This document shows, piece after piece, positions 1 through 5,186 of a DNA stretch of 64,000 nt. A program made the position numbers. Source of the DNA: an uncultured bacterium. Lineage in GTDB: Bacteria; Omnitrophota; Omnitrophia; Omnitrophales; JACQLI01. The stretch spans positions 9,902 through 73,901 of the forward strand of contig CAYJTB010000003.1 in assembly GCA_964372875.1 (NCBI GenBank), read 5' to 3'. Position 1 is the stretch's first letter, and each line of letters starts with the position of its first letter.

Positions 1-3000
1 TCTTTTACGGGTGCATGATCAGGCATTTTTTAACTTCTTATTCTGTGGACGCTGTTTTCTGAGCCACTGATCGATTTCATTTTTATCAAACCGCCACTGG
101 CCACCCACCTTGGAGGCAGGCATCTTCCCCCGCTGGCAAAGCTTATAGATTTTCTCCTTGGAAACCTGAAGATATTCGGCAATCTGTTCGATTGTGAGCC
201 ATTTGGTAGTCATGAATAAGTGTCCATTTTTTGCCAGATTGTACCAAAGAAGCGGCTATTGAGGGATGATAATTTCGCTATGCTTTTTGCGGCCGTACGG
301 TAACGGCGTGCCCTTTGTCGCCTTTCGACAAAAAGACGAGATTCAAACTAGGTCATACCTCAAAAAATGCTACTTCCAGATTGTAGGATAAATGGAGGGA
401 GCGCAATTTAATTACTGTCCAACCCGATACGATCTATTTCACCTACTTTATCAGGTTCTTTTGTTCTGCTCGGATACCAAAGATCATTGTTTGCATTTGC
501 CCAAACGGGGTTTAAATGGTCAATTACATTATGTATAAAATAGGCTGGCGCTTTGTTTTCTAAATGATAGCCATGCCATCTATTGACGGTACGCCTTGGT
601 TGGCCACTTGGATGAAATTCCCAAAATCGAATAAATCTTGAAGTGCCGAACGACAAGCAATGTATTGTTCTTTTCCAATCACTACCAACAACCGATCTTA
701 ATTTTTCTAGGATTGGCATTATTTCTTCTCCCAACCGATCTTCATATGAAAAAAAACCAAAAAATCGTGGTGCGTTTGAAACATCCGATCTTTGGATAAA
801 TTCTGCATTATTACACAATGTTTCAAGATTTGTTTCTAATTCACTCGATTGAGCGCTTGTCTTTACTTCAATTGCCCCCTTAACGGTGTCTGGTGTAACG
901 ATAAGAAACTCCCCATCTTGAAATAGGATCGGCTTCGTTTTGTCATAAAGCAAAATGTCTATTTGCTTGGATTGTGAACTTGAAGATACAACAAACCCAT
1001 GCCCAACACCAACATGAACAGGTAAATGCCTCCTTAAAACAGTCCGAATAACCGTCTCCTTCCACTCTCCATCTGAGAGAGGATGGGCCTGCTGTATGTA
1101 AAGACGAACTCGATCTTTTAAAGAAAACAATTCTTGGGTTAAAGATTCGAAATATTTTTCAGTATCCATAAATTAACTCTAATTTAAATCGCTAAATTGA
1201 GAGTGCCCCCAACTTGCGAGTCTGTTAACGAATTTTTTTGCCGTCCGAACCGCTGCCTCATCTTTTGATTGAAGAGCAGTTTGAATAATCGATCTAATCT
1301 GATCGGCAGATACTCTTATTCGCCAGCCCTCCTCATCATGTTCGATCATGAGTTCAATCAGTTTTACAGAATCGGTCGGAAATTTTTTGCAGATTTTCAA
1401 GAGGTGTTCAATGATGAAGCTATCAGCTTCTATCTCGTGGCACGCCTCGAGAATAGTAATTATTTTTTTAAACGCCCAATCATCGGGTAGTTTTCCAGAT
1501 GCAAACCACCATCCGAAAGATGTCAACTCACTCATACCAGATGAAGCGTTTTTTTCGCAGTAACCCCAAATTTGCTGAAATCTTTTTTGTATTTTTTCTT
1601 CAATAGGCTGATCAGTATTATATAACATACGACCGAAAAATTCTGTCGCGACTTTCCGCAATGGCAGTGAAGCCTTTTGCCAGAATTTTGAAAATATATT
1701 CTGAGCGTCTTCAATATTGATCTTGCCCCTGGAAGCGAACGTGCAAATATGGCCGGCTAAACTTGTTTCCATATTGTTTGGCTTGTCAGTTTCTTCTTCT
1801 ATACGATCAATAGCTCTTATGTATTCATCTCTCAAAACGATTAGCATTTCATCATAGGCATCAATGTAACAAATGTAGGTTTTCCAAGCTGCTTCCCATA
1901 AATCCTCACGATTTTTTTGAGGAGGAAATACATTGGAAAGGTTTTTTGATACCCAGGAGGTATCCAAAAGGTGTAGCCATGGCAGCCATTGTCCGTATAC
2001 AGCTCGAATGGCTAATGATTTTTCTTCCAAATGCGTTTCTAATGCCTCTTTTACTTCAGGCATTTCCTGAAATCCATTTTCAACTTTATTGAACTGTCTT
2101 TGCTCCTCCCATGTTCTGCGTATCCAGAGAGCGTACCGAATCAAAGCATGCATGCTTTGGCCGCGAACGGTGTTGATCGATAAGGTCAAAGGCTCCATGT
2201 CTTGACTTGCGGCGTCAGGATCCGGGTCTTGAAGCAAGAGACTTAAAATATGCCAAACTTTCTCCCGAAAATCGAAGGCAACAGAAGTTTCTTCCTTAGA
2301 AAAACCGTCTTCTAATAAATTTGCAATTGTTTTTCTTGTCCATCCCCAGTCTGGATCAGCATCCAACCGATCACCTTTAACCGTACGTCCTTCGATTGTT
2401 CTAGGCTGTTTCACGATCCACTGACACAAATCAATAACATTTCCCCAATCAAATTTTTTATGTTCCTTAAGGCCATTTCGGAGTCCCTCAAGAACAGAAC
2501 GAATATAGGTCGGATCAAGCCCTTTAAAGAGTAAGGCATCCGCAGCAAATCGTTGAGGCTCTTTCACAACAGCCGAACTTAATACCCTCCCGAGACCTTC
2601 GTGGGAGTGATCGCAAGGTCCTTCCGGGGCTTTCCAGGTTTTGAGAAATTCAACGACTTGAGAGTTTGTCATTCCCAGTAGTTCTTCTGGTGATTTAGGA
2701 CTGGTTGGACCTGTCCAGCCAGTGCTTACAGAGAAAGTAAAAGGAGCCTCCGGTGCGCCGTGCTTTTTCTCGAGATTTTCATAATACACCTTATGAGAAT
2801 CTGTTAAATGATTCTTGATCCACCCTAACCGATCGCGTTGCCAAGCTTCTTTTCTTTGCTTTTTTTCGTCCTCATTTTTTTCTGAATCTTTTGAAAATTT
2901 GGGGCCTTCATAGATCCAGTTTAAAATCGTTTCTTGCTGACCGGGCGATAAGATACCGAAATAGTCAGTGGCCAATTCCCAGTATTCTTTTTTTCCTCCG

Positions 3001-5186
3001 TAGAAGTCAAATAAATCACGCCTAACAAGATGAGCTTTTACGATATCCGGGACTTTGCTGCCAAACGATTTCAAAACTTGGAGAGTTATCCTCTGAAAAA
3101 TTTGCCAGTTCCTTTTTTCTAAAACTTGTATGACGTTTTCTGCGTTTTCAGGTTGCTGATTTAAAATATCCTCCGCGGCCTTTTTTACAGAAAAAACTAG
3201 GATATTTTTAATTTCGCGATTTCCATATCCTTGCGGTTCGACAGAAATATTGGAATACCAGACGTAAGAATAGTCTTCCGGGGCTTTGGAAGCATTGTTA
3301 TCCGTATGGATATTTATTGCTTGCTCCAGAAGATCGCAGAGAAATTCAACAGCTGTTAAACCCAATAAAGGGATAAGTTTTAAAAAATATTTCTTAACAA
3401 TGTCAAGGTAGGTATGGCTGTCCAGCTTCGCCTTGGGTTCTGTCCGGTTAAATCTATTTTTTCTTTTTGAGCCCGCCATTTTATCAGGTTCGATTTCGAA
3501 TAATCCTTTTGCCACTCTTAGGGCTACATCCCCTTTACCTCCCGCGGCTAAATGCACCATTATCTTTGCCGCTTTTTCAGGAATGAAATGGGAATAAGGA
3601 GTTTTGATCCATTCCAATAATTTCTCAACCAATCCAGCGGTTTGGGATGCTGGCAGGTCACCCGCCGCATCCAAGAAATCTTCACAAATCCGAATGTTTG
3701 TGGTTGGTGGAGTTTTTTGAATTATTTCGAATACTTTATCGGGTGTTGTTTTTGCCATGAACGCCAAATACTCTGACGCTGGCCAAGGAGGGAAATGAAT
3801 TGTGCCCTTTTCATCATCAACTATAGGGGCGGGTGGTGAATCAAAGAAACCTTCATTATCAAGAAGCTCAAGCCAAAGAGAAGATTTGCCTTTTATTTTT
3901 GAAAACAAATATTTAAGCAGTACCCAGTTATTTGGAATTTCCTGCTTTAATTTTTTGATAATTTGTTTGGTCGGTACTTCTTCTGCGATTTGATCTATTA
4001 GCGAATGATAAAGAAGATACTTGCTCTCAAAACGCCTCAGGACTTCATCCAAGACTTTTTGAAAACCCTCCCAAATATTTAAAAATTCACTGTCTACGGG
4101 TCGCGGTTCAAGCAGGTTGTTCCGATGCGCGTATTTGTGCAATGACAGCTTCACCCATAGAGTCTTCAACCCGTCATTCTCTTCCGAATCAAACGTATTT
4201 AAGATTCGCTCGATAATTTGCGCCCTTGTTTCTCCGAGCTTACCTATGAATTCTTCAATTTTTCTATCTAAGTCGTTTACGCTGATAATTCCCCTCGCGG
4301 TTAAAAGAACTTTTAAATCTTCTTCCAGTTTTTCAAATTTTGAAAGGAGGCTTGCCTCTGACGGAGAAACGGGTTCGAGAACGCCGAGGATTGAACTTTC
4401 GATTTCACGAAGGAGATGCCCGACCAGATTAGAAGTGCTTGTAAGTTGCAAACTGGTTTGATTCATAAGCTGAACCGCGTCTTTGTACATATTCGCGGGA
4501 CCGTCTCCAATTCGATTTAGGGATTTATAAATTCTTTCTTGTCTGGGATTTTCGAACCGAAAAATTTGTCGCCTCATGCCGGGTAGGCGACTGGATGGAC
4601 CAGTTGCAATTTTGGGGGATATTTTTTGCTCTAGGAAATTTCGAATCTTTTCTATCTGAAGCCTGTTAGGTCTCACGTGGCCGTTAATCCACCGATTGAT
4701 GGTCTGAAAGGAAACCCCGAGTTTTTTGGCGAGCGCCGTTTGGCTCAATCCATGATCCAGTCGGTATTTTTCGAGTTTTCGTAACAGATCTTCCATGATT
4801 ATCAACTAATATACCATTATACCATATTATAACACAAGTAAAATAAACTGCCCTTTCCCCATGCAATAAAGCACCGAGAAAATCCCTTCAGGGGGAGGTT
4901 ACTTTGTTACCGCATGGTTGGGAATGAATTACTGCAAATTATTTCGCGCGGGTTAATTCTCAAACTGGATTCCTACCGTTTGCCGCCGGCTATCTCGTTA
5001 TCTGCATATTTAGCGGCAGCGTGGGAGGAAAATGGGTATTTCGCGGCAGGTTATCTACGGAATAGTTGGTCTAAAAACCAAAGAGAGGCTATCGCCGGTG
5101 TACCCAGCTACGGCCTTTTTAGGAAGATCGTTTGTTAGCTTCCGGACGAATTCGACATGATTGATCGGACGATTTCGACATGATCA

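Follow-up and report, generated by a model that had tools for sequence, protein, structure and literature searches.

A putative autoregulated anti-phage receptor of the Dsr1/Avs7-sensor superfamily with a helix-turn-helix head in an uncultured Omnitrophota bacterium

The window analysed here is a 64,000-nt stretch of the genome of an uncultured bacterium (GTDB lineage Bacteria; Omnitrophota; Omnitrophia; Omnitrophales; JACQLI01), namely positions 9,902 to 73,901 of contig CAYJTB010000003.1 in assembly GCA_964372875.1. Close to its left edge lies a large minus-strand gene whose product, in our reading, is an autoregulated single-polypeptide anti-phage receptor of the Dsr1/Avs7-sensor superfamily. 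We give this reading as a whole a probability of roughly 0.55, and its parts are graded separately below. The protein consists of an N-terminal XRE-type helix-turn-helix (HTH) head, a disordered linker, a conserved all-alpha module that is a putative effector, and a long Trp-rich alpha-solenoid, and the promoter region carries a triple repeat that is a putative operator (Table 1). An earlier sequence-only reading of the same DNA had suggested a phage-defence sensor with a DNA-binding head, a proposal that is strengthened by the homology of the body to the Dsr1 sensor, by the recognition of capsid protein by relatives, and by the position of the gene in a low-GC defence island.

The family assignment concerns the body of the protein. 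The PADLOC hidden Markov model (HMM) for Dsr1, PDLC04166, matched the protein at E = 1.2e-68 over residues 269-1183 (in the numbering from an upstream TTG codon, discussed below), and the alignment spans 904 positions, 296-1199, of the 1227 in the profile. The match begins just past the SIR2 part of the model and covers only the non-SIR2 region of Dsr1. The statement in the sequence-only reading that the protein matches no named system is overturned by this result. DSR1 itself defends as a single protein and carries a SIR2 NADase at its N-terminus (Gao et al. 2020; Garb et al. 2022). As described in the main text of PMC13581612 and its preprint PMC12803255, the part of Dsr1 outside SIR2 is a sensor and shares homology with the sensor of Avs7, a STAND protein. 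The main text of the article (PMC13581612; 2026 Nature) further describes a phage major capsid protein as the trigger of both SeAvs7 and EcDsr1, and the SeAvs7 sensor as a bilobed repeat structure which envelops the HK97-fold capsid protein. The AlphaFold2 (AF2) model of the sensor region is an all-alpha solenoid with a predicted local distance difference test score (pLDDT) of 86. A Foldseek search with the full-length model returned generic HEAT/ARM solenoids only (karyopherins, SF3B1, and CAND1, at TM-scores of 0.15-0.24), with no defence proteins among the matches, and PDB sequence searches with the single sequence and with a full-length profile gave nothing meaningful and no related solved structure. 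Because no solved structure is related and the Foldseek matches are generic, it is the HMM match, together with the literature, that carries the family assignment. Judged by its sequence, the solenoid is very probably a Dsr1/Avs7-type sensor. By homology with Dsr1 and Avs7, its ligand is most likely a phage structural protein, probably an HK97-fold major capsid protein.

The remainder of the architecture sets the protein apart from both namesakes. No SIR2 domain was matched in Pfam, NCBIfam, or PADLOC. A STAND NTPase was not found either, as judged by the Walker A and hhhhD[DE] motifs and by NTPase family matches in Pfam, PADLOC, and NCBIfam, and the sensor starts immediately after residue 270 with no NTPase between it and the effector slot. 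According to the main text of PMC13581612, proteins outside the STAND class also carry the Avs7/Dsr1 sensor, joined to effectors of the NADase, nuclease, kinase, "HEPN-like RNase", or unknown type, and the combination found here, an Avs7/Dsr1-type sensor and an N-terminal putative effector with no NTPase, fits this set. One relative, P0010, carries a protein kinase (Pkinase) domain on the same sensor, which agrees with the effector swapping described in that article. With DSR1 the protein shares a homologous ~900-aa C-terminal alpha-solenoid sensor, the organisation as a single large polypeptide with an N-terminal effector slot and no NTPase, and a context of defence islands or mobile elements. 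Unlike DSR1, it has no SIR2 NADase, in whose place stands an unrelated all-alpha domain with conserved His and Arg residues, and it has an additional XRE HTH and promoter repeats. With Avs7 and the non-STAND carriers of PMC13581612, as its main text presents them, it shares the sensor superfamily, N-terminal effector swapping, and the major capsid protein as the expected trigger. In contrast to Avs7, the protein lacks a STAND NTPase and a Walker A motif, which rules out oligomerisation driven by an NTPase.

Table 1. Features of the large gene and its neighbours in the window.
Feature	Position in window	Strand	Basis or remark
Coding sequence of the large protein, 1205 aa + stop	1179..4796	minus	start is the conserved ATG
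XRE/Cro-C1-type HTH (HTH_3), aa 1-60	4617..4796	minus	Pfam, AF2, Foldseek
Disordered linker, aa 61-83	4548..4616	minus	low pLDDT, lowest identity of all segments
Conserved all-alpha module, putative effector, aa 84-270	3987..4547	minus	invariant columns, AF2, effector-slot position
Candidate active-site residues D106, H127, R130, E131, E133, H224, R225, R232	in the module		
Dsr1/Avs7-type alpha-solenoid sensor (very probable), Trp-rich, aa 271-1205	1182..3986	minus	PADLOC Dsr1 HMM, AF2
Putative operator array, three direct TG(G/T)TATA(A/T)(A/T) copies: TGTTATAAT, TGGTATAAT, TGGTATATT	4808..4835	minus	overlaps promoter
G[GT]TATA cores of the array	start at plus-strand coordinates 4833, 4823, 4815	minus	
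DUF6602 PD-(D/E)xK nuclease, 253 aa, neighbour gene	408..1169	minus	Pfam, PADLOC
HTH_17 excisionase-type / MAD1-like gene, 64 aa	19-213	minus	stop overlaps start of SNF2 gene
SNF2-family helicase gene	ATG at 26, off left edge of window (unit 1..213)	minus	via L047

The integrity of the gene is well documented by its homologs. The open reading frame (ORF) runs without interruption over 1179..4805 on the minus strand, as had been noted before. The start at the TTG at 4805 that had been considered then, which would add three residues (1208 aa), did not hold up: homologs begin at the position matching the ATG at 4796 (MEDLL, MDNIL, and MHEIL), and the two closest relatives have TTT in place of the TTG. 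The ATG at 4796 is thus most likely the start, giving a predicted protein of 1205 aa. Full-length homologs of the same architecture, with identities of 80%, 72%, 42%, and 41%, were found on independent metagenomic contigs. The ratio of nonsynonymous to synonymous substitution rates (dN/dS, Nei-Gojobori) is 0.07-0.09 for the module and the sensor, as compared to the 80% and 72% homologs, and ~0.09 for the HTH, whose estimate comes from the 72% homolog only; HTH, module, and sensor are all under purifying selection. The independent full-length homologs and the low dN/dS contradict a fusion or frameshift artefact, which had been named as an outcome that would undo the sequence-only reading. The full-length AF2 model is essentially all-alpha with a mean pLDDT of 86, and Trp makes up 2.8% of the protein (34 residues, of which 31 are in the body), in agreement with the Trp-rich, alpha-helical body described earlier. 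Also in agreement, neither a Walker A motif nor a convincing transmembrane segment was found. The view that the XRE HTH is the only recognisable part stands for Pfam and NCBIfam and fails for PADLOC, whose Dsr1 model matches the body.

The description of the body as undivided also needs to be amended, as a conserved domain of ~190 aa, overlooked then as the likely effector, sits between the HTH and the solenoid. Over 142 diverse representatives of this module, R130 is conserved in 100%, R232, R225, H224, H127, D106, and W214 in 99% each, E133 and H123 in 96%, and E131 in 91%. The window protein retains the near-invariant core, and the HTH clade has a ~30-aa insertion in the module at about residues 147-187. 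The main argument for an effector is position, because the module fills the slot in which Dsr1 has SIR2 and P0010 has its kinase; on this basis we lean toward an effector function. The Asp/His/Arg/Glu set suggests a metal-independent phosphodiesterase/nuclease or a nucleotide-processing enzyme. The module perhaps corresponds to the "HEPN-like RNase" class of PMC13581612, whose example in the main text is a protein of Streptomyces sp. NBC_00271 named there with no accession, or it could have the fold of an enzymatic effector that has so far escaped classification. A canonical HEPN RNase was considered and rejected, as the window module contains no Rx4-6H motif (R.{4,6}H) and had no Pfam HEPN match. 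Across the module family the Rx4-6H motif is not positionally conserved, the best position being shared by 32 of the 142 representatives.

The family defined by the module together with the sensor is large. A profile search with the module returned 1373 cluster representatives (clustered at 50% identity) at E <= 1e-3, and 1140 at the stricter E <= 1e-10. In the top 150 matches, the long members are nearly all 1100-1150 aa in length, with the module starting at residue 1-15 and the sensor following. The family is spread patchily over more than 10 phyla, with members in Omnitrophota, Planctomycetota, Chloroflexota, Acidobacteriota, Actinomycetota, Cyanobacteria, Bacillota, Patescibacteria, and one Bathyarchaeia archaeon, a distribution typical of horizontally mobile defence genes. 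One HTH-bearing relative comes from a Candidatus Omnitrophota metagenome-assembled genome. Members adjoin integrases, transposases, and other defence genes, and no recurrent neighbour gene family was found across 46 loci; we read the large gene as a single-gene system. Going by the main text of PMC13581612, the family very likely lies inside the dataset of that article, under either the "HEPN-like" or the "unknown" label. As a separate observation, the 72%-identical homolog P0003 (L002-L004) is located on a conjugative or mobilisable-looking element with Replic_Relax, a type IV secretion system coupling protein, and RadC, and its loci have a PDDEXK_1 and WYL-domain gene pair on the upstream side and a divergent XRE gene of 80 aa on the downstream side.

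The HTH head is a clade-specific feature. It matched Pfam HTH_3 at residues 11-58 (TTG numbering; E = 1.4e-11, 44.7 bits against a cut-off of 23) and was modelled by AF2 with a pLDDT of ~90. The best Foldseek matches were restriction-modification (R-M) controller C-proteins, phage repressors, Aca10, and CapH, with root mean square deviations (rmsd) of 1.2-2 Å and a probability of 1.00. The linker that follows has a pLDDT below 50 at residues 62-72 in the N-terminal model and at residues 61-76 in the full-length model. An XRE head is present in five of the 49 word-indexed family members, and N-terminal extensions were rare in an exhaustive family search. Six XRE-bearing sequences form one clade in a rough neighbour-joining tree of the sensor region made with no bootstrap. 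Other lineages have fused DNA-binding heads independently at the same position: P0165 has a winged helix of the HVO_A0114/MarR type, P0190 a weak AbiEi-type head (AbiEi_4), and P0150 an HTH_3 behind an additional 110 residues, and both P0165 and P0150 branch outside the XRE clade on the sensor tree. A separate XRE regulator standing beside HTH-less homologs was also considered and rejected; none similar to this HTH is adjacent to them, and the sole match lies 4 kb off (L021). P0165 itself sits on a mobile element, and the 90-nt region upstream of it (L056, ~1670-1705) contains a perfect 10-bp palindrome, CGACCGGTCG, with GACGAC...GTCGTC arms, which is a candidate operator for the MarR-type head, represented by one example in GC-rich DNA. 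The sensor superfamily and effector swapping are already published in PMC13581612; the variants of the DNA-binding head, the promoter repeat, and the near-invariant residues of the module are not described in the main text of that article.

The occurrence of the head is matched by that of a promoter repeat. Each of the five independent HTH-bearing loci (the window, L005, L002, L007, and L008) has three direct copies of G[GT]TATA in the ~50 nt that precede the start codon, and the DNA farther upstream is unrelated among them. Comparable stretches of 36 HTH-less family loci contained one copy in total. Within the 64 kb analysed, the array is the sole place with at least two motif copies inside 40 nt. 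Since TGNTATAAT occurs only four times in the window, with two of the occurrences in the array, such an array is not ordinary for the genes of this genome. The repeats of L007 and L008 are located between a TTGACA -35 and TACAAT-type -10 promoter and a GGAGG-type ribosome-binding site. The array of the window ends ~12 nt ahead of the ATG, and no Shine-Dalgarno sequence was found in the window and its two closest relatives; given the missing Shine-Dalgarno sequence and the ~12 nt between the last repeat and the ATG, the mRNA of the window may be leaderless or nearly so. Because heads have been captured repeatedly and independently and the HTH strictly co-occurs with the promoter repeat, autoregulation in cis is the best-supported role of the HTH. 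Our current hypothesis, which we regard as reasonably likely, is that the HTH represses its own promoter through the triple repeat.

Known small regulators offer the closest parallel. R-M C-proteins, CapH (of CBASS), Aca proteins, and HigA/MqsA-type antitoxins have the HTH folds nearest to this one (at the rmsd values given above), and C-proteins and small XRE autoregulators likewise have repeated sites over the -10 region of the promoter of the regulator itself. The leader of C-protein genes is very short or absent, as that of the closest homologs here seems to be. In contrast to C-proteins, the regulator is covalently fused to the protein that it would control and is not separately encoded, and the repeats are direct instead of inverted C-box pairs.

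A second way to read the same head is as the output of the protein, which would then be a capsid-responsive transcription factor in which binding of a ligand to the solenoid alters DNA binding and induces the operon, including the downstream DUF6602 nuclease gene. We consider this unlikely, though it survives better than the other alternatives. The RRNPP HTH-TPR regulators (PlcR, Rgg, and AimR) likewise combine an XRE HTH at the N-terminus with helical repeats that bind a ligand, and this parallel to HTH_3 plus helical repeats, the operator-like array at the operon's own promoter, the position of DUF6602 9 nt past the stop, where it would be co-regulated, and the conservation of the HTH, which exceeds that of the other domains in the deepest comparison (58% versus 43% identity), all point in this direction. 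Even so, PlcR and ElrR were only low-probability Foldseek matches, and RRNPP regulators are peptide sensors of 300-400 aa that have no enzymatic domain and no sequence or significant structural similarity to the protein past the HTH. In more than 95% of the family, the module and sensor are retained with no DNA-binding domain of any kind, the HTH clade retains the candidate catalytic residues of the module and a low dN/dS, and the HTH-bearing homologs (80%, 72%, and 41-42%) have no downstream nuclease to induce.

The head could also act chiefly as an antitoxin in cis, neutralising the effector within or between protomers in a type II or type IV-like manner, with promoter repression being secondary. 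That the independently fused heads are of kinds typical of antitoxins (XRE/HigA/MqsA-like, AbiEi_4 in P0190, and MarR-type in P0165), and that the flexible linker would permit the head to fold onto the module, fit this idea. Most family members, however, tolerate the effector with no head, and the strict co-occurrence with promoter repeats indicates that DNA binding is the selected function, which makes neutralisation as the main role improbable in our estimate. Repression of the receptor's own promoter is still the role that we favour for the head.

The remaining question is that of a partner, as the DUF6602 gene starts 9 nt after the stop of the large gene, with which it is probably co-transcribed at this locus only. 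Its product matched Pfam DUF6602 (E = 1.3e-19) and the PADLOC model for Cas-associated PD_DExK (E = 8.5e-22), the N-terminal half matched NucC models at E = 1e-11 to 1e-12, and residues E38, D71, E101, and K103 are invariant. The sequence-only reading had pointed to a co-transcribed nuclease partner and had raised a survey of homologs for a constant PD-(D/E)xK neighbour. That survey went against a partnership, as none of the 45 other fetched family loci carries a DUF6602 homolog, including those of the 80%- and 72%-identical homologs, and the contexts of DUF6602 genes elsewhere are unrelated. For the 80%-identical homolog, no DUF6602 is present within the 220 nt of downstream flank available; next after the 72%-identical homolog comes a small, divergent HTH gene, and next after the 41-42% ones a recombinase. 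The settings of DUF6602 genes elsewhere include the vicinity of an uncharacterised protein of 321 aa and a Vsr/Dcm module, a Dnd/SNF2-PLD island, the neighbourhood of a methyltransferase and a transposase, and a solitary position amid housekeeping genes. A single-gene DUF6602 defence system, Damona, has been described from Vibrio cholerae integron cassettes (bioRxiv 10.1101/2024.07.02.601686). Damona has the identical domain signature (DUF6602, Cas-associated PD_DExK, and CBASS small endonuclease, which is NucC-like), a similar length of ~250 aa, and varied mobile contexts. The gene of the window differs in standing 9 nt behind another defence gene, and the comparison with Damona was one of domain signatures. 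Since DUF6602 is absent at the 45 other loci, its own contexts vary, and Damona stands alone, we conclude that the nuclease is an independent Damona-like module that probably shares the transcript by island packing.

A two-gene system, in which the large protein senses and then activates or recruits DUF6602 as the true effector, is accordingly largely refuted by the gene-neighbourhood data, and we rank it as more improbable still than the antitoxin. The two genes do lie on the same strand, 9 nt apart and with no terminator between them, the D71/E101/K103 site of the nuclease is intact, and its N-terminal half resembles NucC, a CBASS effector that is activated in trans. These features are outweighed by the 0/45 count, by the lack of any recurrent neighbour gene in the family, by DUF6602 homologs that stand beside unrelated genes or alone, as Damona does, and by the two proteins having no common similar domain that could mediate pairing. 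The 9-nt adjacency is misleading, and tight spacing alone does not define a system. Last, a housekeeping scaffold or regulator with no role in defence, or a misassembled chimeric ORF, is refuted for practical purposes: the generic HEAT/ARM scaffolds among the Foldseek matches of the body reach TM-scores of only 0.15-0.24 and the specific HMM match is to Dsr1, so that the housekeeping match that could have undone the sequence-only reading did not appear, and the patchy taxa, the low-GC islands and mobile elements, the same full-length architecture on independent contigs, and the purifying selection all speak against it.

Two side observations concern the neighbours of DUF6602 homologs elsewhere. 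The 321-aa protein in L048 (5004-5969) has an IRCDFDH sequence (an Rx4H motif) and no Pfam match, and a 197-aa protein in L050 (6865-7458) has a weak match to HEPN_RiboL-PSP (E = 8e-4). For a subset of DUF6602 genes there may be a loose association of nuclease and HEPN.

Several points weigh against an autoregulated receptor as we have described it. With regard to the ligand, capsid binding has been shown for Avs7 and one Dsr1 only, the branch studied here is only ~20-25% identical to the kinase-type relatives, and the ligand in so distant a branch may differ. With regard to the module, the window protein departs from the consensus at positions that are 92-96% conserved (H123N, C108V, and R137L). 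Scans of 9-38 family members gave no consistent match of the module in Pfam, PADLOC, or NCBIfam, the module profile found nothing among PDB sequences, and a Foldseek search with a model of residues 1-300 against PDB and BFVD returned HTH matches only, the HTH dominating that query; with no canonical HEPN Rx4-6H, calling the module an RNase is a guess. With regard to the promoter, the repeat can equally be read as a perfect extended -10 element (TGnTATAAT), and the array could be a set of tandem promoters and not of operators. XRE dimers, moreover, usually bind inverted repeats and not direct ones. The 9-nt spacing to DUF6602 implies co-expression, and some functional coupling with the nuclease is possible at this locus. 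It should be noted that this protein and the whole module-plus-sensor family are known from sequence only.

With these points in mind, the receptor that we propose would work as follows. The ~930-aa C-terminal solenoid would serve as a pattern-recognition domain that clamps a phage structural protein, and binding of this ligand would switch on the effector at residues 84-270. The XRE HTH on its disordered linker would be a clade-specific regulatory add-on which binds the triple repeat over its own -10 region and represses transcription. Such repression would keep a potentially toxic protein low and buffered, similar to an R-M C-protein or the antitoxin of a toxin-antitoxin system, here fused in cis. 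A more elaborate version is a feed-forward circuit, in which the resting receptor represses its own promoter and capsid binding or oligomerisation releases it, amplifying the receptor and the co-transcribed nuclease; we regard this extension as doubtful.

The surroundings of the gene are those of an island. The GC content is ~0.40 in the first 5 kb of the window as compared to ~0.48 elsewhere, and the low-GC stretch abuts a housekeeping block (GAPDH, a response regulator, a glycosyltransferase, fmt, def, and priA). The locus consists of three consecutive defence-type units, namely the receptor, the Damona-like nuclease, and a unit of HTH_17 and SNF2 genes. The product of the HTH_17 gene reached 71 bits against the NCBIfam model antiphage_MADS1, just below the cut-off of 80. 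The helicase gene was identified through L047, which is 100% identical to positions 1-273 of the window (273 nt) and continues into an SNF2-rel_dom protein (E = 6.5e-31). HTH_17 and SNF2 together are probably another defence system. A conserved DUF6602-HTH_17 block was ruled out, as the two HTH_17 proteins compared are only 24% identical.

Repeats were also observed at the borders of these units. The 10-mer TACAATCTGG is present in two minus-strand copies, 234-243 and 376-385, within the 194 nt that separate the stop of DUF6602 from the start of HTH_17, and the copy nearest HTH_17 holds a -10-like TACAAT ~25 nt upstream of the HTH_17 ATG; the copies may be a promoter or operator of the HTH_17 and SNF2 unit. 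At 5143-5184 on the plus strand, directly beside the GAPDH stop and at the boundary between housekeeping DNA (GC ~0.48) and the low-GC island, lie two tandem copies, 95% identical and spaced by 23 nt, of the 19-nt sequence CGGACGA(A/T)TTCGACATGAT. This pair could be an island junction, an att-like remnant, or a regulatory element. Finally, a strongly positive AT skew of 0.14-0.26 distinguishes positions 23000-25000, 40000-41000, 45000-48000, and 63000-64000 from the rest of the window, and these stretches may merely reflect long plus-strand genes.

Taken together, the analysis describes a family of more than 1000 clusters that joins the capsid-sensing Dsr1/Avs7 sensor to a putative effector domain, whose near-invariant Asp/His/Arg set provides clear targets for mutagenesis. 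HMM-based defence finders may mislabel such a sirtuin-less protein as Dsr1 and thereby overcount DSR1. The repeated fusion of varied DNA-binding heads offers a compact and testable model for how toxic single-protein receptors are restrained and possibly induced. If the feed-forward version were true, the protein would be an inducible innate immune circuit in which phage recognition is coupled to expression in one polypeptide, and the fusions of MarR-, AbiEi-, and XRE-type heads would be convergent solutions to one problem.

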